IMG/VR virus record: IMGVR_UViG_2802429248_000006
Coordinates: 1-26,851 of that record
From: a virus
Lineage: Duplodnaviria; Heunggongvirae; Uroviricota; Caudoviricetes
Length of the DNA: 26,851 nt
Strand: one strand, 5' to 3'
Position 1 is the stretch's first letter, and each line of letters opens with the position of its first letter. Both the position numbers and the translations under genes were made by a program. This document shows, piece by piece, positions 1,518 to 25,725 of this stretch. The notes beneath the pieces are model-generated. The model did no database searches. It had not been told where the DNA came from and saw nothing but the letters and a program-made list of their open reading frames with translations.

Positions 1518-2939
1518 TTACTCACCAACAGCCCACCAACTGTAATTCATCGATACTGTGGAACTGGTTGATGCAGTTCTGTAAGCAGAATTAAAACCGG
1601 TTAATGTTGGGCCTTCTGCGGTCATCACGAATCCCCGCCCAGCACCTAAAGGCGCACCACCATCACCAGAATGAGTAAGCATGGCGCAGTCCACTTTTTT
1701 AGGAAAAGGGATGCTGAATGTAATTCTCATTGTTTGCGTCGATAATGTCGGCGTAACCGCACCACGACCATATTGCAGGATTTTCCCGTTGGGTAATTTC
1801 ATCCATCCATCACCACTGGCAAAAGAGGCCATGTCCGGTATCTGATTTTCCCCTGTCCCTACATCCCGTTTTGCCGCTTCTCCCAAACCAAGGTATGCGA
1901 GAAGACCAGCAACATCCTTTCCACTCAAATTAGTCAGCGTATTGTCCAGCGGTTGTTTACCTGCCAGTGCATTAAGCATTGTCGTGGCAAAGTTCGGGTC
2001 ATTCCCCAGCGCCGCCGCCAGTTCGTTCAGTGTATCCAGTGCCGCAGGTGCAGAACCCACCATTGTCGCAATCGCCGATTTCACAAAAGCCGTAGTGGCA
2101 ATCTGTGTATTGTTGACCGACTGCGCCGCCGTGGGGGCTGTTGGCGTTCCGGTGAGTGCCGGACTCGACAGCGGCGCTTTCAGTGCCAGCGCATTGTTAA
2201 TGGTGGTACTGAATTTCGGATCATTGTTAATGGCTACGGCTATTTCTTTCAGCGTGTCCAGCGTGGCTGGCGCACCATTAATAAGAGCCGTCAATGCCTC
2301 CTGAACAAACGCGGTGGTCGCAACCTGCGTGGTGTTATTCCCCGCCGCTGGCGTTGGCGCTTTGGGTGTCCCGGTAAACGTAGGACTTTCTTTCTGTGCA
2401 TACTGTGAATGCGGGTCCGGTGCGGCAAGATGTTTTGCCATCTGATCATCCGCGTACACCTTCAGCTCCAGTACCTTATCATCCACATACTTGCGGGTTG
2501 CCAGCACTACGGCAGGGTCGATTTTCAGGGTGATATTGTCCGTGCTGCTGGTAATCAACACCATACGCACGGTCTGGGTACGCCCGCTGCCTTCAGCCAG
2601 TTGCGGCTTATAGCTTTCCGGGCAGTTGCCCACGGCAATCAATGCCCCGGACTCATCAAACAGGCCCACTTCACGTATCCACCAACCACCCTCGTTTTCA
2701 GGGATCACCTGTTCAGCAATAATCTGGCTGCTGTTCTGCGGGTCGATATAGAGCATATTCAGCGCAGCCCGACGTTTCTCATTTACCAGTGCTGTCTGCT
2801 TTGCATCCGGCGTTGGTAATGTTCCGCCGCCATCGCCGACCGCCATATGGGTAATTTTTAAAGGCACACCGAGCGCGGCGGCGCTGGCAAGTTTCGCCGC
2901 GCCAATATCCGTCAGCAGGGTATAAAATTTTGTGCTCAT
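1518..2939 (-). CDS. H: Tail fibre protein H (constant N-terminal part plus currently joined variable C-terminus)
   Basis: 473-aa ORF with P2 H-like N-terminus (MSTKFYTLLTDIGAAKLA...) and internal duplicated ~60-aa modules; ATG overlaps the gpI stop (ATGA). Confidence 0.9.
   Translation of the reverse strand: MSTKFYTLLTDIGAAKLASAAALGVPLKITHMAVGDGGGTLPTPDAKQTALVNEKRRAALNMLYIDPQNSSQIIAEQVIPENEGGWWIREVGLFDESGALIAVGNCPESYKPQLAEGSGRTQTVRMVLITSSTDNITLKIDPAVVLATRKYVDDKVLELKVYADDQMAKHLAAPDPHSQYAQKESPTFTGTPKAPTPAAGNNTTQVATTAFVQEALTALINGAPATLDTLKEIAVAINNDPKFSTTINNALALKAPLSSPALTGTPTAPTAAQSVNNTQIATTAFVKSAIATMVGSAPAALDTLNELAAALGNDPNFATTMLNALAGKQPLDNTLTNLSGKDVAGLLAYLGLGEAAKRDVGTGENQIPDMASFASGDGWMKLPNGKILQYGRGAVTPTLSTQTMRITFSIPFPKKVDCAMLTHSGDGGAPLGAGRGFVMTAEGPTLTGFNSAYRTASTSSTVSMNYSWWAVGE
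1878..1903. other. gix/cix/hix-type 26-bp invertase crossover site inside H (constant/variable junction)
   Basis: TTCTCCCAAACC-AA-GGTATGCGAGAA: perfect left half, imperfect right half; encodes YLGLGE in H; its partner half-site is at positions 1-12. Confidence 0.6.
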
Positions 2940-3541
2940 GGATTCACTCTCATTGTGTCAATAATATGGACCGCCCCGCCTTCATGCGCGGTGCCGCCGG
3001 AAATAATTGTTTCGTTGATATACGGATAGATCGTGATTTCTTCGCCAAGATAGCTGGCGGCTCCCACCCAATGCGGGCCGCTGGTCTGCAGGTTGATGGA
3101 CATGCCGATCATGTGACGACTACATGGTTTGGCATCGCTTATCAGTCGCTCAAGTTCCAGATGGGTATCTTCAGTGATGCCCTGGTCCTGCACGCCGATA
3201 TCCAGGCGAAACGTGCCCGGTGTCTCTCCGGTCTGCCACCACTCAATAATGCGGATCAGAAAGCCGAACGGCTCCACCACCCGCCGCACGGCACTGGTGG
3301 TCCCTTTATGCTGATGAATATAAAAAGCATCCTTCACCACCTGGCGCTTGACGCTTTCTGTCCAGCCCTCGTCCCAGCGATCCACAGAGAACGCCCAGGC
3401 GAGATAAGGCAGGAAACTGACCGGACAGGTTGCCGGATTCCACAAGTCACGCAGTGACACCTGCAGATCAGAAATCCCGCTGCAGGTTTGCGCCAGTCGG
3501 CGCTCCAGTGGCGTTGAACCCGGTGGCAGCAGACTATTCAT
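2936..3541 (-). CDS. I: Baseplate assembly protein I
   Basis: 201-aa ORF in the P2 position between J and H; stop overlaps the H start. Confidence 0.85.
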   Translation of the reverse strand: MNSLLPPGSTPLERRLAQTCSGISDLQVSLRDLWNPATCPVSFLPYLAWAFSVDRWDEGWTESVKRQVVKDAFYIHQHKGTTSAVRRVVEPFGFLIRIIEWWQTGETPGTFRLDIGVQDQGITEDTHLELERLISDAKPCSRHMIGMSINLQTSGPHWVGAASYLGEEITIYPYINETIISGGTAHEGGAVHIIDTMRVNP

Positions 3542-14214: not shown

Positions 14215-15318
14215 TTAATCTTGCTCAGGCTCATAACGTGGTTCAATACTGCCAAAATTAACATATTTAATAACCGACGTTAACTCTATATCCTCAGCGT
14301 CCATATTATCATAATTCCTATCGAAATCATTAAATATGGTAAAGATCACACTGGTAGTATCATCAACTTCTGTAAACTCCGTTGTAGCAGCCAAGTAAAC
14401 ATTATCTTTATCTATAGAATCGTAATGATAAAAATTAAATTCACACTCAGCATTATATGTTACTGTGACTTTAATCTCAAAAGTCGCATAATCTTGACTA
14501 ACATCTATAACATTAATAGAAGGTTCAAACTCAACGTCTGATACATAACAATAGTTAGCCTCCGGCTCAAAACTAAGGTAGGAATCAGCCTCTGCCATAA
14601 AACTCACATCATCATAACGGCTAATAACTACACTTCTAATAGAGTCCAATAGGGTAATAGATTTTCCAGCCTCTATATCGAGCATTAAACGCTGAGCAAA
14701 CTCATATGGAGCTGTTCTAGGTTGAAAGTGCGTTAATGCTTCGCCTAAATCCTGAATGCAGGTTACATAATCTGAACCACTACAGTATTCAATCCATCCC
14801 TGGTCTCTTGAAATTGCTATTATTTTTTTATGAGATTTTTTAGCATAAGCCTCAATTGCAAATAGAACTGTTGCATCTGGAAACTCCTCCTTCCTTTTCT
14901 TTCTATCAGCGAAGGGCGGAGTTAAATTAAAATAAGCATCAAATACTTCATCAAGTGTTGTATAGTCACTACACTTAATTTCAACCGCACCACATTTTTT
15001 CAAATATTCTTCTATCCTTGAAGAGGCCAACGCATCAGAACTGACCATTTGTATAGAGTTTTCAAAAATAGATTCAGTCTCTTTGCTGGTTAGCAAAGAA
15101 TGTATCAGTGCATCTTTAAGAGATTTATCCAGTGCATCTTGTGATTCTTTAATTTTTTTTGATAGATGACTTTGCACTTCATTTTTCACGATGTCAGGCA
15201 TAAGAAAATCCACTTGGCTATGACAAAACTGCTTCATCCGTGCAAGCATACCTTCGTTAAAACGCCAGTGATAATTATCAATAGTTTGTGTATCTAAAAC
15301 TATAGCATCGTATGACAC
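14215..15318 (-). CDS. Hypothetical cargo protein, 367 aa; N-terminal PIN-like nuclease-type fold suspected, C-terminal acidic beta-rich domain of unknown function
   Basis: Long intact ORF with GTG start and an AAGGAG Shine-Dalgarno; visibly AT-rich against the GC-rich flanks; N-terminus AIVLDTQTI plus later acidic residues (E47, PDATVL, SRDQGW) resemble a PIN-like pattern. Confidence 0.6.
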   Translation of the reverse strand: MSYDAIVLDTQTIDNYHWRFNEGMLARMKQFCHSQVDFLMPDIVKNEVQSHLSKKIKESQDALDKSLKDALIHSLLTSKETESIFENSIQMVSSDALASSRIEEYLKKCGAVEIKCSDYTTLDEVFDAYFNLTPPFADRKKRKEEFPDATVLFAIEAYAKKSHKKIIAISRDQGWIEYCSGSDYVTCIQDLGEALTHFQPRTAPYEFAQRLMLDIEAGKSITLLDSIRSVVISRYDDVSFMAEADSYLSFEPEANYCYVSDVEFEPSINVIDVSQDYATFEIKVTVTYNAECEFNFYHYDSIDKDNVYLAATTEFTEVDDTTSVIFTIFNDFDRNYDNMDAEDIELTSVIKYVNFGSIEPRYEPEQD

Positions 15319-16243: not shown

Positions 16244-18685
16244 TTAATACAGGTTCCGCCACTTATCATCTTCCCGCAAACGCTGGTTCCGATAGAAGAT
16301 ACGCAAGCCTGCTCCTGACGGAATACTGCCGCCGCGAAGGAGTAAATCGACCTCTTTCTCGCTACCATCAAATCCTCTGGACTTCAGCTCATAGACGAGC
16401 TGCTGTCGCTGATGATCTGTAATTCGCTGTTTGTAGTCTTTACGCCGTTTCGGTTTCACCAGGCGTAACCTTGCTGCCAGTTCCCGGCGCTCTTTTTTGC
16501 TCATACTGTGCAGATAATCGTGCAACTCCTTGTCATCCATGCGGGTAATATCCGTTCTGGTGTCCCCATCAGCTGATTTATCTTTCTCCTGTTGGTTCAA
16601 ATTTTCAGCAAGGGGACAGTTATTGCCACGAGTCCAAGGGGCGCAAGCGCCCTGGTCGGCTGCCGCCTCCTGAACGTCAACGGCCTTACGAACCATTTTC
16701 CACTTCACGGCATGAGTGCAGATCTTGCCCTCTGCAATGGGTGACCAGATGCCATAAATACGAATGCCGTGATCGCCATAGGCGGTCGGCTCTTCGTTAA
16801 TTTCATAAGCGGTTCTGATGAGGTGATATTTGCGGGGAACCAGTACGCCGCCCTGCTTCATGATGTAGGTGGCAAAACAACCAGCATCAGCAGCAGCCAG
16901 GATGGCATCAAGGCGCGGGTTATCCAGTACCGGCGCACCTGCTTTTTTGTCGCCCTGTTGCCTTGCCGCCTGACCAGCCAGCAATCGCAGTTCACGGTAA
17001 GCCTGACGCCCCGGAATGCCAAAGAAGCGGAATTGCTGAACACGATGCAGAGACGCCCAGGCATTAACGTATTCAGCGTTATCACGCAGGGATTTACCCG
17101 TTTCCTTGCTGATCTCGCCAGCCAGACCACGCCCGTCAATGTTCTTACTGATGTATTTCGCGATGTAGCTTGTTGGCGTACCTTTGCGCGGGTTTATCAG
17201 CTCAGACTTAAAGCGTGGTCCCGTGTTATTACCCAGCTCCTCGCGGTCTTCACGAATGGCAAACTTACGCAACAAAGCAGTAATGGCGCGGCGATCTTTT
17301 TTGCGCATAAAACACAACAGGTGCCAGTGAACTGTACCGTCATGATGCGGCTCAGCCACCCGCACGCCATACCAGCGCAATCCGGCTTTGTGCATCGCCT
17401 TACGAAATGCAGCAAACATGCCGACCAGATAATCACTGCTTTGTCTTACCGTCGCATTTGTCCAGGTCGGGTTGGGCCTGCCGTTATTTAGCGTGGAATG
17501 GAAACGTGACGGACAGGTGATGGTGTAGAAAACGGCGCAGTCACTGCGCATTTCCGCGATAAGCTCCAGACCTTTAACACAGGCCATCATCTCATTGCGG
17601 CGATGCGCCGGGTTGCTGCTGCTGGCGTTTACCACATCTTCCATATCCAGCGTGTCGCCGTTTTCGTTCACCAGTTCATGAGAACGGAAAAACTCCAGCG
17701 ACTTACGGCGCTGCTCACGTTTATGCATCACGGCTTCATAGCTGACATAGGGAGATGCTTTTTTGCTGACCAGGCAGACAGCACGCAACTGCTCTTCCCG
17801 CCATTCGCAGCGCATCTTCCATAATTTCCGATACCACCAGTCGGCACACAACATACGCGCCAGCGAACCCGGAATGAGTTCATAGGGCACGGGTTTGCGA
17901 CGCTTTCTTTTCCGACGAAGTTGCTCAAACGCAGGCGGGATAACATCCAGTCGCAGGGTTTCCGCTGCCACCTTTTCCCATGTCTTGCGGATTTCTTCTG
18001 GCTTAACATCATCGGTGGCGTACAAATCACCACAAGCGGCATCAAGGCACATGCTCATATGCGCAGCTACCAGGGTGGACAGGCGTTTCACCTGATCCTG
18101 ACTCATTTCAGGCAGGATCAGCAGGCCGTCCAGCCCTTCATGGCTCGCCATAAAGCGAAAAGAAGTGGATAGCTGACTGTCGCGTACATGCTCCAGCCGT
18201 TCCAGACATGGCTTAATCGTCTCACGCAAATAGCGGGAATAAGCCTTTGGCCTGCCCAGGCTGCTGAAGTATTCAATACGTTGCATCAGCGGCTTGCTGA
18301 TATGGGAAGGCTGGGCGTTAACGTCCGCCAGAATGACCATGTCCGGATTAAAACGCTGCTGCTCATGCGCCAGCTTTGCCCGGCTAATGAGCTTATCCTG
18401 CTCCATTTCGCGTTGGACAGGATCACGGGATTCATTAAAGAAATAACGCTCCCAGACCTGATCACTCAGTGCCTCGCGGCGCACTTGTTCCTGCTCGTTA
18501 TCGGCAGCGTACAGAGTGATCAGGTTTGAAAGCGCAGAAACCGGCGCAACTTCCGCCGGGTCCAGATAAGGGTTAATGGCTTTCTTAGGTAAATTCCACG
18601 AATAACCCCCGGCAGAATTCTCAATGCTACCGGAAGTTACACTGACAAATGGATCGGCAAGACGGCCTGTGCTGATCTCTGTCAC
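16244..18685 (-). CDS. A: Replication initiation protein A (rolling-circle HUH endonuclease)
   Basis: 813-aa ORF with P2 A-type motifs ([25 protein letters not shown]); GTG start overlaps the upstream stop (GTGA). Confidence 0.9.
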
Positions 18686-19692
18686 TCACAGACTCCTGCA
18701 TATACACTGCTGCACACCGCTTTATCATTCATGCCTGCCAGCAGGTCAAACTGCATACCGCCCCGAGTCGTTAAGGCCCAGTCCCGATAAGTTTCAATGC
18801 CATAAGCATCAACAGTTATGACTTCGATCCGTTTTTCATCACGGCGCGGATCATGCGTGGATGGAAAGAACGTTGAATTGCCACGTCTTGAACATTCCGC
18901 AACCAGTCTTTCCCACTCAGCCACTCGGCGGATTTCTTCTGGCCAGCGTTGGAAAATCTCAGCAAGTTCTGACTTGCGAGCATGAATACATGGCATACAA
19001 CCGACACGACTGCATCCCTGCATATAAAGGGGGTTAGGCTTAATGCCATGACGTTTGGCAATAGCAAACACATCCTCATGCAGCCAATTAAGGATCGGAC
19101 GATAAACATGCAGGCCCAGAGTATTGTCTGCATCGTCCTCCCACTCAGGCAACAATGCACGTTCCGGTGATTCCTGCCCCCGGACTCCTTGCCAGCTGAT
19201 TACCTCATCGTATTCATCCAGAGCCGGATCGATTACCTGTGTACGTATTGGTTCATGTTTCAGTTCAAAAGTGCAGAAACGAGCTTTTGTTGAAGGGAAG
19301 CGACCTTTCCACATGCACAAATCAAGAAACGGAACGCCGGTTGGTTTAAGGATTTCCAGTGCCCGGTAAATACGTTCCTCAGCCTCATCTGTCGACATAC
19401 CACATTCCTCAACGAGAGAAATGGGCCACTTTTCCGCAATGAATTTACGTTTCCCTTCTATCTGGCGTGTGAAATCCGCTTTGACGCGAATAATCTTGCC
19501 CAGCTTTGATTCCAGATAATCCAGATATTCTATTGTCTGTGGATGTTCATGACCCGTATCGGCAAATACAGAAATATGCGGAACATCGTTTTCAATGGCT
19601 CTTAACCATTGAGCGAGACTATCTTTGCCACCAGAAGTAGTGATGATGTTAATGGTGCTTGAGGCAAAGCAACGCGGATCGATAGCATTCAT
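18682..19692 (-). CDS. PAPS-reductase / DndC-like PP-loop ATP pyrophosphatase family protein
   Basis: 336-aa ORF with PP-loop motif (TSGGKDS) and a C-terminal cysteine cluster (CSRVGCMPC); ATG overlaps the Dam stop (ATGA). Confidence 0.75.
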
Positions 19693-20537
19693 GCGCGTAC
19701 CTCAACGGTACGGTCAGAGCCGCTGGCAAAATCGACACCAAACCACCCAGCTGATTTGGTGGCAATGATTTCTGTTGCAGATTTACTCTCGCCAGCTGAC
19801 ACGCCAATGCTGCGTTTTGACTTGATGTAGTGGTGAGTGAAATTGCGATACAGCGAACGGATCAGGGATGTGTCACTGTTAGAAACAATGACCGGATGAC
19901 CTTCAGATGATCGATGTTCAAGAACGGATGCCAGGTGATACTGGTCATCTTCAGTGAAGCCATCAGTGTGATAGCCGGAAAACGTACCGTCATAAGGCGG
20001 ATCGCAATACACCACATCCCCCACCTTCAACATCGCCAGCGTTTCATCAAAGCTGGCGCAGATAAACGTTGCCTGCTGGGCTTTCTCTGCAAATGCGCGA
20101 ATTTCTTTTTCAGGGAAATACGGATTTTTATAATTACCGTAGGGAATGTTGAAATACCCGCTCTTGTTATAGCGACATAACCCACGGTAACCATGACGAT
20201 TGAGATACAGAAAATATACCGCTTTTATGAAATCAGTAATTTCAGTGGAGTAATTAAACTCCTGCCTTATGTTGTAATAAGCCACCTCCCTGTTTGCTTC
20301 CTCAAATAAAGCTCTGGCACGAGATATAAACGCCTCACAATCAGCAGCAACCTTTTTATAGAGGTTGATTAAATCAGGATTAATATCCGCAACAAGATAG
20401 CTGGGGTAATCCGTCTCCATCATCACTGCACAGGAACCCGCGAAAGGTTCAACCAGTCGCGGGCCAGCAGGAAGATGCTTTTTCAGTTCGGACATTATGG
20501 CGGTTTTATTTCCCGCCCATTTCAGGATAGTGCTCAT
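19689..20537 (-). CDS. dam: DNA N6-adenine methyltransferase (Dam-like)
   Basis: ORF 19689..20597 trimmed to the ATG ([11 protein letters not shown]) behind a GGAGGTG Shine-Dalgarno; motif I (FAGSCAV) and motif IV (DPPY). Confidence 0.85.
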
Positions 20538-20761
20538 ACAGCACCTCCGTTGTAATGTTTGCCTTTCAGCTCTGCGATTTCCTGACAGGTAATGCAAAGC
20601 TGCACACCCGGAATGGCACGACGGCGTGCTGGCGGAATTGGCGCTTCACACTCAATGCAAAGCACACGAGACACGCCCGGTGTTTTGGCACGGGCAGCAC
20701 GAATATGGCGCTGGCGTTCTTCTTCAACGCGCTGCTGTACGAGATCCATTGCATCAGCCAT
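20534..20761 (-). CDS. TraR/DksA-type C4 zinc-finger protein
   Basis: 75-aa ORF with CxxC...CxxC (CIECE...CITCQ); stop overlaps the Dam start (ATGA). Confidence 0.7.
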   Translation of the reverse strand: MADAMDLVQQRVEEERQRHIRAARAKTPGVSRVLCIECEAPIPPARRRAIPGVQLCITCQEIAELKGKHYNGGAV

Positions 20762-20994
20762 TAGTGGATCTCCTGCGCTTCGTTCTGGATTGCTTCAGCA
20801 GTTACACGCAGCAGTTCTGCCGCTTCGACGTGGTTTAGCTGGCTGGATGTGATATGACACGCCAGGCTATCAAGGCGAGCTGCCATTGCTTCAGCCCTTG
20901 CCCGGCGTTCTTCCAGACGAGCCTCTGTCAGTAAAATATTAAGCCCTGCGTCGTCCGGTCCGGTTTTAGTCGTGAGGGTTTCAATATTACGCAT
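20761..20994 (-). CDS. Hypothetical early protein
   Basis: ORF 20761..21000; internal ATG preceded by AGGAGA; same strand as the early operon. Confidence 0.5.
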   Translation of the reverse strand: MRNIETLTTKTGPDDAGLNILLTEARLEERRARAEAMAARLDSLACHITSSQLNHVEAAELLRVTAEAIQNEAQEIH

Positions 20995-21061
20995 AATCAA
21001 TTCTCCTGAATTTAGATAAAGGGATGCCCGGCGGGTTTACGCCATGATTTTCATTAATTGG

Positions 21062-21403
21062 TTAATTCGGCATGGTTAGCCGTCTGGGAAATAAGCTCAC
21101 CACTGCACGAAAATGATTCATTGCTTTAATCAGCTCCCGCTTTTCGTCAGTGGTCAGCTCATTAATGCTGATGCTATGACGTTCAGCTGGAATTTTTGCC
21201 ATAAAGAATATGGCAGCCAGTGCTCGTTTATTTTGTTCGTTATTGATATCCCGTGGATCACGCATATCTTTAATAAACCGCTCAAGCTCTGACTCAATAT
21301 TCAGGCCAAAAACTTTCGCCCTTAATTCCGCTATGTGATTAAGTCCATTCAGGCGTTCACCGGGACTTAATGGAACAGTCGCCGCAGCGCCTTCAATAGC
21401 CAT
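21062..21403 (-). CDS. Hypothetical protein (113 aa)
   Basis: Intact ORF in a lower-GC patch; divergent from the plus-strand ORF at 21485. Confidence 0.5.
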   Translation of the reverse strand: MAIEGAAATVPLSPGERLNGLNHIAELRAKVFGLNIESELERFIKDMRDPRDINNEQNKRALAAIFFMAKIPAERHSISINELTTDEKRELIKAMNHFRAVVSLFPRRLTMPN

Positions 21404-22973: not shown

Positions 22974-23912
22974 ATGTCAACTCAAAAAATCACATTTCGC
23001 CATATTGAAGATAGTCTGAAAGCTATGGTCATGCAGAATCGTGGAGGGCAAAAAGTCATTGAGAGGATACTCAAGGCCTATGGTTTCAAATCACGCCAAG
23101 CCTTCTGTAAGCATCTTGGTATTTCACAAAGCACAATGGCTAATAGATATGCACGCGATACCTTCCCTGCTGATTGGGTTGTTATATGTTCAATGGAAAC
23201 TGGCGCATCCCTAGAATGGCTGGCCTTTGGTTCTAACAATGCAGAAGAAAGTTTCCCCCCTTATGTGGAACAACATGATGAAACAGTCCCACATGAGGGG
23301 TTTAACAGCAACGCTCATCAATCATCCTTTAAGCGCCGCATTGAGAATCACATTGAGCTTACTAACGGAGGAAAAGCCGCGATAGAGAGGATTGTTAATG
23401 CTTACGGGTTTAAAACCCGCCAAGCCTTAGCCGACCACCTTGGTATTTCAAAAAGCACATTAGCCACACGATACATGCGAGATTCTTTCCCTGCGGATTG
23501 GGTGATTAAATGCGCATTAGAAACCAAAGCGGATCTCGCCTGGCTAGTTACAGGAATCGAAACACCAAATAGTTCACAAGAAGAAAACACTGTAATTTTA
23601 AATAAGTTCAATTTAGTCAATGGCGTGCTTGTCGAGTCAGGTTTTTTATCCATGGATCGGTGTCTACTTCCGAAGCAAGAAACTAGCAGCTTGATGTTTG
23701 TAAGCAATGGAGAAAAACATGTCATATGTGATAAAGAATTTCACCTAATTAGAGATGGAAAATGGTTAGTAGGAATTGACAATGAGTTATCTTTAAAAGA
23801 GTTAACTCGTTTACCTAAGAACAAAATTCTTGTTTCTGGTGGGAGTAAGGATTTTGAGTGTTCCATTGAGGATATTCAAATTATAGCCAGCATTATCTTA
23901 ACAATACAATAA
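22974..23912 (+). CDS. cI: CI-like immunity repressor with two tandem N-terminal HTH domains
   Basis: 312-aa ORF; residues ~27-95 and ~130-200 are clear paralogous copies (ERILKAYGFKSRQAF...FPADWVVICSMETGASLEWL vs ERIVNAYGFKTRQAL...FPADWVIKCALETKADLAWL), resembling the 186 CI N-terminal domain as I recall it. Confidence 0.7.
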   Translation: MSTQKITFRHIEDSLKAMVMQNRGGQKVIERILKAYGFKSRQAFCKHLGISQSTMANRYARDTFPADWVVICSMETGASLEWLAFGSNNAEESFPPYVEQHDETVPHEGFNSNAHQSSFKRRIENHIELTNGGKAAIERIVNAYGFKTRQALADHLGISKSTLATRYMRDSFPADWVIKCALETKADLAWLVTGIETPNSSQEENTVILNKFNLVNGVLVESGFLSMDRCLLPKQETSSLMFVSNGEKHVICDKEFHLIRDGKWLVGIDNELSLKELTRLPKNKILVSGGSKDFECSIEDIQIIASIILTIQ

Positions 23913-23955: not shown

Positions 23956-25725
23956 ATGAATCATCATCTTTCAAAGATTTCTATAAAAAACTTTAGATCT
24001 TGCAAAGATATTGATATCAATTTTTCTTCATTCACGCCTTTAATCGGTTACAACAATGCTGGTAAGTCAACGATTTTAAATGCTATTGAATGGCTTTTTA
24101 AGAAAAAACTTTTGTCCTCTGATGATTATACTAATCCAGATAACCCTATAGAAGTTATAGGTACAGTTAAGGGTATTACTGAAGATATTTTGTCAGCTTT
24201 AACAGAAGAAAACAGAACTAGAATTTCACCCTACATTATTGATGGGGTATTGATATTTAAGCGTCAACAGCCTGTTGGTGCTCAAAGTGCAAAAGACGTC
24301 AGATTATTAATTAAAAACCCAGAAAATAACGAATTCAGGACATCACCAACGGGTATTGAGAATGCGATAAAAGCTTTATTTCCAGACCCAATACGTATAG
24401 GTGCAATGGAAAATGCAGCGGATGATTCTTCAAAATCAAAAACAGGAACTACAATAGGTAAGTTGCTGGCAGAATTGAGTTGCAAAATAGAAGAGAAGCA
24501 CACTCAAAGGATACTAAGCCATTTAAATGCCGTTAATAGAAGAATGACTGCAACCGGTAATAAACGAATATCGGACCTCAATGATATTGATGATTCAATA
24601 AGTAGTAAAGTTGCTGATTTCTTCCCTGGGATAAGTTTAAAACTACACTTCGAACTCCCTGACTTCAAGGATATATTTAAATCAGGGACTGTAAAAGTAT
24701 ATGAAGATTCATTTCCCGGCATTGCTCGTGACTGTTCTTCTTATGGTCATGGCACACAGCGTTCGATTCAGATGGCTCTAATAAGACATTTAGCTGATAT
24801 AACCAACGGTGATGATATTAAAACAACTACTCTACTGTTAATAGATGAACCTGAGTTATATCTTCACCCATTTGCTATCGAACAAATTAGAGAATCTCTA
24901 AAAACACTATCTCATCATGGATATCAAATAATTTTCTCTACCCATTCATCTCAAATGATTACCTCTGACTTAGCAAAAGACACTGTGTTAATCAGAAAAA
25001 ACAGTCAGCGTGGCACTCATTGCAGATTAACATTAAAAGAAGCAGTCAATAAAGTAATCGAACAACGACCAGCACAAGCAACCCATTTATTTTCATTAAC
25101 ACAGTCTTCAAAAGTTTTGTTTGCTAACAATGTAATACTAACAGAAGGTAAAACAGAGACTACTCTGCTCCCATTTATTTTTAACAAAGTTAAAAATAAA
25201 ACATTAGGTCAGATGCAAATAGCACTAATTGAAACAGGGTCCGTTGAAAGTATATCTAAAACGATGCAAATTCTAAATTCAATGGATATACCTACAAAAG
25301 CAATTGTTGATTTAGATTTTGCGTTCCGCGGTGCAATAAGGAACAACTTCTTAGAACATAATGACGAGGATATTTTACGACTAAAAGAAATCTTGAGAAG
25401 TATGCATGCTAATGGAGAATGCACTCTCGATGGATCCGGTTTGCCTACAAAGGGTAGTAACACTACCGCAGCTGAAGCATTTGCTATTATGTCTCAAAAG
25501 CCCGGCGCCAGAGAATTTTTGTCATCATTAGCCGCAAAACTGAGAAATGCAAATATTTGGATTTGGCTAAATGGTTCGATAGAAAACCATTTGGGTCTTA
25601 CAGAAAAAAATGAATCAGTATGGGCTGATTTCAAAACAAAAGCAGATACACAACCTCTTTCAGATATCTGTGCAGATTTCGAAAGTATTGAGGCTTTAGT
25701 CGACTGGATTACCCCTGACGTATGA
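23956..25725 (+). CDS. old: OLD-family ABC-ATPase / TOPRIM nuclease (P2 Old-like, class 1)
   Basis: 589-aa ORF with Walker A (GYNNAGKST), Walker B (LLLIDEPELYLHP), TOPRIM-type glutamate (VILTEGKTE) and DxD (VDLDFA); GGAGGAG Shine-Dalgarno; AT-rich. Confidence 0.85.
   Translation: MNHHLSKISIKNFRSCKDIDINFSSFTPLIGYNNAGKSTILNAIEWLFKKKLLSSDDYTNPDNPIEVIGTVKGITEDILSALTEENRTRISPYIIDGVLIFKRQQPVGAQSAKDVRLLIKNPENNEFRTSPTGIENAIKALFPDPIRIGAMENAADDSSKSKTGTTIGKLLAELSCKIEEKHTQRILSHLNAVNRRMTATGNKRISDLNDIDDSISSKVADFFPGISLKLHFELPDFKDIFKSGTVKVYEDSFPGIARDCSSYGHGTQRSIQMALIRHLADITNGDDIKTTTLLLIDEPELYLHPFAIEQIRESLKTLSHHGYQIIFSTHSSQMITSDLAKDTVLIRKNSQRGTHCRLTLKEAVNKVIEQRPAQATHLFSLTQSSKVLFANNVILTEGKTETTLLPFIFNKVKNKTLGQMQIALIETGSVESISKTMQILNSMDIPTKAIVDLDFAFRGAIRNNFLEHNDEDILRLKEILRSMHANGECTLDGSGLPTKGSNTTAAEAFAIMSQKPGAREFLSSLAAKLRNANIWIWLNGSIENHLGLTEKNESVWADFKTKADTQPLSDICADFESIEALVDWITPDV

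Follow-up and report, generated by a model that had tools for sequence, protein, structure and literature searches.

The PAPS-reductase-fold gene (hereafter the PAPS-like gene) that directly precedes replication gene A in the 26,851 nucleotides analysed here (the window, meaning the whole stretch) is an accessory early-operon member of the 186-orf84/lambda-NinC family (PHROG 424), and a cassette that took the place of the Dam/A junction brought it into a P2-like E. coli prophage. The cassette is rare, while the adjoining gene for a Dam-family methyltransferase is a core gene of the prophage clade; in this lineage their adjacency is positional, with no dedicated partnership. The encoded protein has the fold of a PAPS reductase, and its PP-loop is intact; we tentatively propose that it works alone on phage nucleic acid, as an ATP-dependent enzyme similar to Fe-S sulfurtransferases.

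The PAPS-like gene lies in a chain of overlapping early genes

The genes upstream of A, and A itself, are arranged as follows:

21000..20761, minus strand: DUF2732 protein, 79 aa (PF10809, 1.2e-28)
20761..20534, minus strand: TraR/DksA C4 zinc-finger protein, 75 aa (PF01258, zf-dskA_traR, 3.1e-11; TIGR02419, 65.8 bits against a cut-off of 59.7)
20537..19689, minus strand: Dam-family (D12 class) N6-adenine DNA methyltransferase, 282 aa, with a DPPY motif (PF02086, 8.8e-77; TIGR00571, 319.5 bits against a cut-off of 114.85)
19692..18682, minus strand: PAPS_reduct-fold protein, 336 aa (Pfam PF01507, 1.1e-33; phrog_424, 1.4e-82)
18685..16244, minus strand: replication gene A, a rolling-circle initiator nickase, 813 aa from GTG 18685 (PF05840, Phage_GPA, 4.2e-126)
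18693..18697, minus strand: AGGAG Shine-Dalgarno motif for A, within the last codons of the PAPS-like gene and 7 nt before the GTG (read directly)

The original prediction had the zinc-finger, Dam, PAPS-like and A genes chained by ATGA, ATGA and GTGA, and all three 4-nt overlaps were read directly from the sequence, at 20537-20534, 19692-19689 and 18685-18682, respectively. The chain is nevertheless longer than the four genes named, as the DUF2732 gene joins it as a fifth member through a TAATG at 20761, where stop and start have 1 nt in common (read directly). Shine-Dalgarno-like motifs (AGGAG, GGAGG, GAGG and AGGAG) lie 6-8 nt before all four junction starts, so that the PAPS-like gene has its own motif as well as a position in the early lytic operon. 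The upstream limit of 20597 first given for the module had to be corrected: it is the TTG of the longest open reading frame, and Dam in fact begins with ATG 20537, as RefSeq has it for an identical gene. The Dam-family protein carries CDPPYDG in its translation and scores 287 with the E. coli Dam equivalog model, below the cut-off of 441.

The stop/start overlap architecture is kept in RE2010, 186, P37, phiE125 and Rivra, and the 4-nt overlaps are the operon's general termination-reinitiation architecture; in RE2010, which has no PAPS-like gene, it is Dam that overlaps A by 4 nt. Such overlaps would keep A translated whatever gene stands upstream, functional coupling being documented solely as a note in the 186 record. 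Since RefSeq starts A at an ATT codon 60 nt further down than GTG 18685, coupling to A in the window rests on that GTG, the AGGAG motif and the like arrangement in 186 and RE2010.

The window also contains Old and PIN-domain cargo, with a GC content of 0.35; that of the PAPS-like gene is 0.48, like its neighbours.

A rare cassette replaces the Dam/A junction

Among 5426 complete E. coli genomes, 1289 had the A clade of the window and 1239 had Dam, whereas the PAPS-like gene, counted at a threshold of at least 95% identity, was present in only 24. Alignment with Salmonella phage RE2010 delimits the inserted segment:

18590..19761, no strand assigned: 1.17-kb replacement cassette relative to RE2010 (blastn: segment unmatched, flanks 96-97% identical)

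Besides the entire PAPS-like gene, the cassette contains ~24 codons from the end of Dam and ~32 from the beginning of A; RE2010 has 147 nt in its place. The closest sequenced phages, RE2010 and the Klebsiella relatives, couple Dam straight to A and lack the PAPS-like gene; phages 186 and P37 carry the PAPS-like gene and have no Dam at that position. A dedicated pairing of the two genes is therefore not supported, one being core and the other rare, with 186 and P37 doing without Dam at this site.

Conserved motifs point to a probable ATP-using, sulfur-handling enzyme

The protein is a close relative of coliphage 186 Orf84 (CP84; NP_052288), with 81.4% identity over residues 4-336 (99% of its length), and a distant one of lambda NinC (NP_040635), which matches phrog_424 at 1.2e-89 and for which hhalign gave 99.3% probability (E 2e-20). 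The gene is not new, being the homologue of 186 orf84, and coupling to A had already been written into the 186 record, which states that orf84 is not essential and that translation of A appears to need translation through the orf84 end. Likewise, ninC was given as non-essential in earlier literature (PMC10695390), and the lack of the PAPS-like gene in the closest phages would agree with its being dispensable. The family comprises 343 representative clusters at E<=1e-30, and about 70 positions are invariant across 75 of its sequences at 50-90% identity. The residues that matter most here are these:

19618..19635, minus strand: codons of the PP-loop S20-G-G-K-D-S25, the ATP pyrophosphatase signature (invariant in 75 sequences, near-invariant in 49 diverse ones)
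19273..19275, minus strand: codon of Cys140 in the FCT..LK motif, a predicted Fe-S ligand (100% conserved, also in lambda NinC)
18988..18999, minus strand: codons of C232-M-P-C235 (CxxC), predicted Fe-S ligands (97-100% conserved)
18688..18714, minus strand: codons of the C-terminal tail cysteines C327...C335-E at the protein end (C335 97-100% and C327 81-100% conserved)

The PP-loop (SGGKDS) and cysteine cluster noted at the outset were thus both borne out, the former as invariant residues 20-25. Of ten cysteines (8, 97, 126, 140, 227, 232, 235, 267, 327 and 335), C140, C232 and C235 are invariant and may bind an Fe-S cluster, for which C126 (80-100% conserved in the family) may be a fourth ligand; the conserved pair C327 and C335 belongs to a flexible tail at the C-terminus. 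The AF2 model, which has extra helices at residues 75-135 and a long C-terminal extension, is of good confidence (pLDDT 86), with lower values in that tail.

Taken together, ATP and sulfur are probably used on a nucleic acid, although the motifs are our guide to substrate, sulfur use and Fe-S binding throughout the family. During lytic growth the enzyme would bind ATP, adenylate its nucleic-acid target (most likely phage DNA undergoing replication) and then swap the activated oxygen for sulfur, which a host cysteine desulfurase could supply through the tail cysteines and Fe-S cluster. Such a reaction would be chemically similar to those of DndC/SspD or TtuA, carried out by one protein without the usual ATPase or nickase partners. 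PAPS-reductase domains have their pyrophosphatase activity in common with the RNA thiolases ThiI, MnmA, Ncs6 and TtcA (PMC12914056). The phage might gain camouflage from host restriction and defence, or interfere with them, and the gene would be dispensable in the laboratory. The original view that this chemistry is uncharacterised still stands.

Neighbouring genes point to DNA without a fixed methyltransferase partner

Across the family, a DNA methyltransferase gene is the nearest one upstream at 23 of 73 species-level loci and the nearest one downstream at 5 of 68, both as raw counts. Downstream, gpA is present at 27 of 68 species-level loci and at ~58 of 79 close viral loci. Dam is upstream in ~33-36 of 80 close viral loci, the place being taken in the others by a zinc finger, DUF5405, exonuclease, ASCH-like protein or ParB. 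In phiE125 the order is N6_N4 methyltransferase, PAPS-like gene, ParB, and in Rivra the PAPS-like gene stands between two methyltransferases with 4-nt overlaps throughout. ParB_N, helicase and primase follow it in a metagenomic phage group, and Prim-Pol or helicase in other phages.

The substrate could instead be something other than DNA, the enzyme thiolating tRNA or other RNA in the manner of TtuA/TtcA, or acting on a nucleotide, a cofactor or a protein (as QueC-like Cap9 does on a CD-NTase), and in that way it might tune translation or disable host defence. No DNA-binding partner is encoded beside the gene in the window, and ASCH, dUTPase and dGTP-diphosphohydrolase genes are neighbours at some loci. 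We nonetheless consider a non-DNA target unlikely: the genes that recur beside the family encode DNA methyltransferases, ParB-like proteins and replication initiators rather than RNA enzymes, and the top matches in the defence library are the DNA enzymes SspD and BrxP.

The same neighbourhoods bear on the proposal of a dedicated DNA-modification or anti-restriction module made up of Dam and the PAPS-like enzyme, for example one elaborating or needing N6-methyladenine at GATC. The two genes share a 4-nt overlap and are co-translated, methyltransferases stand beside family members in many phages, one 560-aa relative has a weak methyltransferase-like region at its N-terminus, and in Burkholderia phages a methylase, a PAPS reductase and a partition-like protein travel as one moron (PMC2920897). 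Against this stand the discordant counts of Dam and the PAPS-like gene in the clade, the direct joining of Dam to A in RE2010 and the Klebsiella relatives, the Dam-less arrangement of 186 and P37 and the less than constant presence of Dam at close viral loci. Moreover, the methyltransferases found as partners fall into three unrelated classes (D12, N6_N4 and C5), so that a single methyl mark is excluded as the substrate, and GATC sites are as frequent in the window as expected (92 against 95.7 +/- 9.7). Such a module is therefore quite improbable. What survives of the suggested link to DNA modification is the company of methyltransferase, ParB-like and replication genes in unrelated phages; the specific tie to Dam is lost.

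Metabolic, leader and defence roles fit poorly

Many annotations, and a large part of the literature, take the protein for a metabolic (P)APS reductase. As an auxiliary metabolic gene, the PAPS-like gene would encode a real reductase that boosts host sulfate assimilation in infection or lysogeny. The Pfam PAPS_reduct match agrees with this, as do the labels in PHROGs and RefSeq and the interpretation of the Burkholderia phage gene as one of sulfate assimilation (PMC2920897). The closest solved structures among the PDB matches are likewise APS/PAPS reductases; as no DndC or SspD structure was seen among those matches, the fold comparison cannot favour DNA enzymes or reductases. The CxxC (C232/C235) aligns with GCEPC of the APS reductase 2goy.

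Every curated cut-off failed, however, with 63.8 bits against 154 for CysH (PRK02090), 48.3 against 235.3 for APS reductase (TIGR02055), 37.4 against 165.1 for TIGR00434 and 36.9 against 254.2 for PAPS reductase (TIGR02057). The sulfate-assimilation CysH identity that had been named as counting against the proposed module was not borne out by these scores. The PP-loop is of the ATP type (SGGKDS), whereas CysH and APS reductases have a degenerate P-loop, the aligned residues being SFGIQA in 6vpu and SGAED in 2goy. Of the APS-reductase 4Fe-4S ligands CC...CxxC, the CxxC is matched, and the position of the CC pair has only C140, preceded by an invariant Phe, with C126 a candidate for the fourth ligand. 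Members of the CysH family have a catalytic cysteine on a C-terminal tail, of which the tail cysteines here are reminiscent, but the C-terminal catalytic motif of CysH is ECG[LI]H and the PAPS-like protein ends in AGVCE. The helical insertion and the C-terminal domain are further differences from CysH, as are expression in an early lytic operon beside replication genes and a neighbourhood of DNA enzymes, in which other cys genes were never found among the species-level loci. A bona fide CysH was accordingly rejected, and the metabolic role is very doubtful.

Another thought is that the coding sequence serves mainly as a translated leader delivering ribosomes to A, with a vestigial enzyme; the statements in the 186 record and the placing of the A Shine-Dalgarno motif within the last PAPS-like codons would suit this. 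We give it hardly any credence, as any upstream gene suffices (Dam serves in RE2010), the ~70 invariant positions amount to strong conservation, and the family also occurs in phages without gene A.

Scarcely credible, too, is a superinfection-exclusion role as a component of prophage defence, for although PAPS-reductase proteins occur in defence systems (BREX type 4, type IV-B CRISPR and NAP-based ones) and the window carries Old and PIN-domain cargo, the gene lies inside a repressed early lytic operon, outside the P2 cargo hotspots, differs from that cargo in GC content, and is without BrxC, BrxZ, BrxL or Cas partners in the window.

Comparison with known systems

The nearest counterpart of the PAPS-like gene is 186 orf84, also the last gene before A in an early lytic operon and also overlapping A by 4 nt. 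The genes upstream of it in 186 encode Orf82, which is exonuclease-like, and Orf83, a DUF5405 protein, instead of Dam, and DNA identity is only ~72%. The gene for lambda NinC sits shortly after the replication genes O and P, and the protein retains both the FCT..LK cysteine and the CxxC as well as a tail of the form Cys...CE (CSESCE) at its C-terminus. It differs in its length (290 aa), in being only ~24% identical over 173 aligned columns, in having neither the helical insertion nor an adjoining methyltransferase, and in its degenerate PP-loop (SGGRTS), so that some members of the family may do without ATP. Further away, gp57 of Burkholderia phage phiE125 is 42% identical to the window protein and, as in the window, overlaps a preceding DNA methyltransferase gene by 4 nt and has replication genes downstream. 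In this case the methyltransferase of gp56-gp57-gp58 is of the N6_N4 class, not Dam, a ParB-HTH protein comes next, and phiE125 itself is a siphovirus whose replication is of the lambda type.

Likeness to DndC and BrxP had also been predicted, and this held for the sequence features and in part for the matches. DndC, an ATP pyrophosphatase of the PP-loop type, carries a 3-Cys 4Fe-4S cluster together with a cysteine dyad for sulfur relay (PMC10853773), and the PAPS-like protein shares with the DNA-phosphorothioation sulfurtransferases DndC, SspD and BrxP the PAPS-reductase domain, the canonical PP-loop and cysteines that would suit a 3-Cys Fe-S cluster and a relay. In PADLOC its best match was SspD (1.8e-23, 81.6 bits), followed by BrxP (3.5e-12, 43.4 bits), both spanning residues 126-264 only and made with models that have no curated cut-off; the SspD score exceeds that for CysH, though not by far. 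All 49 diverse family members matched SspD (best 3.6e-28) and BrxP (2e-26), and 35 of the 49 matched DndC. The likeness to DndC itself failed for the window protein, which scored 17.2 bits against the cut-off of 290.4 (TIGR03183), and the partner ATPase is missing. A P-loop NTPase partner is needed in four of four established phosphorothioation systems, and PAPS-reductase genes without one give no PT (PMC12914056). The window operon (Dam, zinc finger, DUF2732 and gpA) has no DndD/SspC/BrxC ATPase, no DndE/SspB/DUF4007 and no desulfurase gene, and neither a P-loop NTPase nor a DNA-recognition or nicking partner was found among the neighbours at 76 species-level loci. Membership of Dnd, Ssp or BREX type 4 was rejected because the partner ATPase is absent. 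A further parallel lies in the company kept, as DndC goes with the ParB-superfamily protein DndB and many of the phage family members are likewise accompanied by ParB-like proteins; DndC systems, however, serve host self-marking, whereas the PAPS-like gene is phage-borne and lytically expressed.

An overlapping early operon in a P2/186-like prophage

The window is an E. coli prophage of the P2/186-like type (Peduoviridae) with a typical map, in which tail, lysis, capsid and terminase genes are followed by replication gene A (encoding the rolling-circle initiator nickase, gpA), the early operon, and the CII, Cox/Apl-like, CI and integrase genes. The gene analysed here, referred to as the PAPS-like gene, lies in the early operon between Dam (a D12-class N6-adenine methyltransferase) and A.

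Early operon genes (window coordinates)
21403..21062, minus strand, DUF5347
21000..20761, minus strand, DUF2732
20761..20534, minus strand, TraR/DksA zinc finger
20537..19689, minus strand, Dam
19692..18682, minus strand, PAPS_reduct protein, 336 aa (PAPS-like gene)
18685..16244, minus strand, replication gene A

From DUF2732 through the zinc finger, Dam and the PAPS-like gene to A, the reading frames meet at the junctions TAATG, ATGA, ATGA and GTGA, and a Shine-Dalgarno-like motif is found 6-8 nt 5' of every start in this overlapping chain. The coupled chain of the original prediction is therefore real, but its extent needed amending: position 20597, where the interval had been ended, is a TTG, Dam starting instead at the ATG at 20537, and the chain comprises five genes, DUF2732 included, rather than four. 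For A, the RefSeq/PGAP annotation of the identical locus in E. coli strain EC416 uses an ATT 60 nt downstream of the GTG (19942-19944 in the EC416 locus, L004; window 18623-18625). This is probably a mis-call; the GTG is more credible, since AGGAG lies 7 nt upstream of it and the overlap is annotated alike in phages 186, P37 and RE2010.

The arrangement of zinc finger, Dam, PAPS-like gene and A is thus real, yet ordinary for the P2/186-like group. Translational coupling of the PAPS-like gene to A is likewise generic and was documented before for coliphage 186, whose record describes orf84 as a gene of unknown function that is not essential, with translation to its end apparently needed for the A protein; gene and coupling had thus both been recorded before. 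No terminator-like site resembling the 186 attenuator tM1 was found in the 5' end of A.

The PAPS-like gene is an accessory cassette and its pairing with Dam is incidental

In the closest sequenced phages, the Klebsiella P2-likes and Salmonella phage RE2010 (96-97% DNA identity), the region from A to DUF5347 aligns in two pieces and the PAPS-like gene is absent; in RE2010 a 4-nt overlap joins Dam directly to A. Pairwise alignment resolved the RE2010 difference as a 1172-nt replacement (window 18590-19761, where RE2010 has 147 nt), which covers the PAPS-like gene entirely, together with ~24 codons from the end of Dam and ~32 from the start of A. A 10-bp hairpin with a T-rich tail (window 19736-19761, minus strand) lies within the 3'-terminal part of Dam and coincides exactly with the left edge of this cassette. 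It was the sole minus-strand hairpin in the terminator scan and may mean nothing, since terminator-like sites in the region are no more frequent than expected by chance.

The PAPS-like gene is accessory. Among 5426 complete E. coli genomes the A clade occurs in 1289, Dam in 1239 and the PAPS-like gene (at least 95% identity) in 24, with a 186-type copy in 14 more. Dam is a core gene of the A clade, so any cassette inserted before A would end up beside it. Phages 186 and P37 carry the PAPS-like gene but lack Dam at this position, and Dam stands upstream in about 33-36 of 80 close viral contigs, the others having a zinc finger, DUF5405, a DnaQ-like exonuclease, DUF3850/ASCH, a ParB-HTH protein or unknowns there; about a dozen of these contigs are not P2-like. 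GATC sites in the window are neither avoided nor enriched (92, versus 95.7 +/- 9.7 expected). The dedicated Dam and PAPS-like pair that had been proposed is not supported: a Dam-specific partnership was rejected on the disparity in prevalence and on phages carrying either gene alone, and in the P2-like E. coli lineage the pairing is incidental.

A further member of the orf84/NinC family

EC416 carries a copy of the PAPS-like gene with 100% identity. The gene product matches Pfam PAPS_reduct (1.1e-33) and the phage family phrog_424 (1.4e-82), and no curated functional family. In a translated search of sequenced phages, coliphage 186 Orf84 was 81% identical and the Yersinia phage P37 gene equally close, with genes at 40-47% identity in Pseudomonas, Serratia, Acidovorax, Stenotrophomonas, Agrobacterium and Burkholderia phages. 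Lambda NinC, whose annotation is that of a PAPS-reductase-family protein, is likewise placed in phrog_424 (1.2e-89; family-profile alignment probability 99.3%). The PAPS-like gene is therefore a further member of the named, functionally unsolved orf84/NinC family, for which the scored candidates form 6187 clusters at 90% identity, with 343 representative clusters (50% identity) at E<=1e-30.

Earlier literature gives ninC as non-essential (PMC10695390). Literature searches on anti-defence, IbrA/IbrB, ParB with PP-loop and ninC, whose results were partly swamped by irrelevant words, returned no experimentally assigned function, and the gene goes unmentioned in Silas et al. and Rousset et al.

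Conserved residues were read from two alignments, one of 49 diverse members (36-52% identity) and one of 75.

Conserved motifs of the family (residue numbers of the 336-aa protein)
PP-loop (ATP pyrophosphatase signature), S20-G-G-K-D-S25, invariant or nearly so
Conserved motif, DTG.EH
Conserved cysteine, C140 within FC...LK
Conserved loop, W-Q-G-V-R..ES..R
Conserved motif, NPLY
CxxC, R-V-G-C232-x-P-C235
Conserved lysine, K240
C-terminal tail, C327-S-S-x-Y-G-x-C335-E

In these alignments C126 is also conserved, at 80-90%. A profile search of PDB sequences aligned the CxxC with GCEPC of Pseudomonas APS reductase (2goy), whose cysteines are Fe-S ligands. In the same PDB-sequence alignments the loop is degenerate in CysH and APS reductase (SFGIQA, SGAED), the family having SGGKDS at that place. 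Lambda NinC (2582-3454 in the lambda locus, L181) keeps every conserved family cysteine, and its PP-loop reads SGGRTS rather than SGGKDS, so ATP handling may differ within the family.

As had been supposed, the protein is no bona fide CysH, an identity rejected on the curated cut-offs and the motifs: it scored 63.8 bits with the CysH model (cut-off 154) and 48 with the APS reductase model (cut-off 235). At profile level the best NCBIfam matches were uncharacterised archaeal PAPS-reductase-like families (~1e-25), followed by CysH (6.6e-21). All 49 diverse members matched SspD (best 3.6e-28) and BrxP (2e-26), and 35 of them DndC. Membership of the Dnd, Ssp or BREX type 4 systems was rejected on the absence of their partners and the low DndC score (17, cut-off 290): no P-loop NTPase or DndE/SspB-type partner was found beside the PAPS-like gene or in the sampled relatives. 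Structure comparison favoured neither the DNA enzymes nor CysH, the PDB structures matched by the protein including no DndC or SspD.

The family heads replication modules, often beside DNA-acting genes

For 76 loci, drawn from different bacterial species, the neighbours of family members were recorded as the nearest gene on the same strand encoding 80 aa or more. In raw counts, a methyltransferase acting on DNA was nearest upstream in 23 of 73 loci (18 D12, 4 C5, 1 N6_N4) and nearest downstream in 5 of 68, while gpA came next downstream in 27 species-level loci. On these counts, the link of the family to DNA-acting genes beyond the P2-like lineage is real and recurrent. In phiE125 the order is N6_N4 methyltransferase, PAPS-like gene, ParB-HTH protein and replication genes; the same trio has been described in Burkholderia phages as one moron, read as sulfate assimilation (PMC2920897). 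Agrobacterium phage Rivra has the PAPS-like gene between two methyltransferase genes, with a 4-nt overlap at each junction. In one P2-like contig (L061, 3473-7024) a D12 methyltransferase gene and then two small ORFs precede the PAPS-like gene, which shares 4 nt with a C5 cytosine methyltransferase gene placed between it and A; evidently, from this gene order, the cassette site can hold several modification genes together.

In a metagenomic phage group the PAPS-like gene is followed by ParB_N, DEAD helicase and Toprim primase genes, and in further loci a Prim-Pol or helicase gene lies next to it. What is constant in the family is an early-region position heading the replication module, frequently adjoining a methyltransferase or ParB-fold protein. 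In the same metagenomic group a 0.5-1.4-kb stretch without a called gene precedes the PAPS-like gene (L085 2535-4001; L174 2813-3501; L178 1477-2021; L180 2772-3501), which might serve as an origin or regulatory region, or encode an RNA.

The family may resemble the E. coli IbrA/IbrB pair, which consists of a PAPS-reductase-like and a ParB-like protein. Two copies 81-82% identical to ours (L073 4093-4998 and L076 4105-5004) lie in non-P2-like elements with an integrase, directly 3' of a ParB-HTH protein of 300 aa and overlapping it by 1-4 nt, an order that we take to recall IbrB/IbrA. When 10 longer relatives were scanned for domain fusions, the one match was a weak, sub-threshold methyltransferase-like N-terminal region fused to the PAPS domain of a 560-aa protein (P0257). 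Five members of the diverse alignment match the PADLOC Type II methyltransferase model (8e-7), pointing to a PAPS-reductase-like part within that model.

Other accessory genes in the window

Between the portal gene and A, a 367-aa PIN_12-domain protein (window 14215-15318, minus strand; 2.4e-30) is encoded in a low-GC stretch (GC 0.35, GC3 0.26). It resembles the cargo of P2 hotspots and is possibly a defence or toxin gene; EC416 differs in having a P-loop NTPase gene at this site. A full-length Old-family ATPase/nuclease gene (23956-25725, plus strand; PADLOC Old 1.4e-234; GC 0.35), missing from the EC416 relative, lies directly 3' of the repressor gene and 5' of the integrase. The CI-type repressor (22974-23912, plus strand) has 312 aa, compared with about 190 in 186 and EC416, and contains two tandem Phage_CI_repr helix-turn-helix domains, visibly alike in sequence, and one CI C-terminal domain.

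Discussion

The interest that remains lies in the family itself, which is present in two of the best-studied coliphages (186 orf84 and lambda ninC) and which virome studies routinely count as a sulfur-metabolism auxiliary metabolic gene (AMG), cysH. That label is probably wrong, and the enzyme probably acts on nucleic acid, as judged from the ATP-type PP-loop, the sub-cut-off CysH scores, the early-operon placement and the methyltransferase, ParB and replication neighbours. Since close homologues occur in genetically tractable E. coli phages, its function is directly testable in 186, lambda and this prophage.

We tentatively propose that the enzyme would adenylate an oxygen on nucleic acid at the expense of ATP and then transfer sulfur to it from its Fe-S cluster or tail cysteines, with a host desulfurase as the supplier; the target would be phage DNA in lytic replication, and the gain evasion of host restriction or defence. 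Taken as a whole, this chain falls somewhat short of an even chance. It is rather unlikely that the family performs DNA thiolation as a single protein, using ATP, an Fe-S cluster and host sulfur to place a phosphorothioate or thio-base on replicating phage DNA. Such an enzyme would work with none of the ATPase or nickase partners that all known phosphorothioation systems require, and would reach DNA via a ParB-like protein, methyltransferase or replication nickase; if true, lambda, 186 and thousands of genes labelled 'cysH AMG' would hide a viral DNA modification of a new kind.

An RNA, nucleotide or protein substrate is unlikely. A true Dam-linked module is improbable, the pairing being positional, Dam far outnumbering the PAPS-like gene and GATC sites being as expected. 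Genuine sulfate assimilation, the interpretation given to the Burkholderia moron, is very doubtful for a protein that lies under every CysH cut-off and has an ATP-type PP-loop. We give hardly any credence to a mere translated leader for A, for which the 186 record speaks, or to a role in prophage defence.

The proposed nucleic acid-directed sulfur transfer would resemble phosphorothioation. DndC is an ATP pyrophosphatase of the PP-loop type in which three cysteines carry a 4Fe-4S cluster and a cysteine dyad receives sulfur, and it is accompanied by the ParB-superfamily protein DndB (PMC10853773). Pyrophosphatase activity of the PAPS-reductase domain is common to ThiI, MnmA, Ncs6 and TtcA (PMC12914056). 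The motif set of the PAPS-like protein fits these descriptions. Established phosphorothioation systems all need a P-loop NTPase, and PAPS-reductase genes without one gave no phosphorothioate (PMC12914056), whereas the PAPS-like gene has no such neighbour. The PAPS-like enzyme would work as DndC and SspD do, yet from outside their systems.
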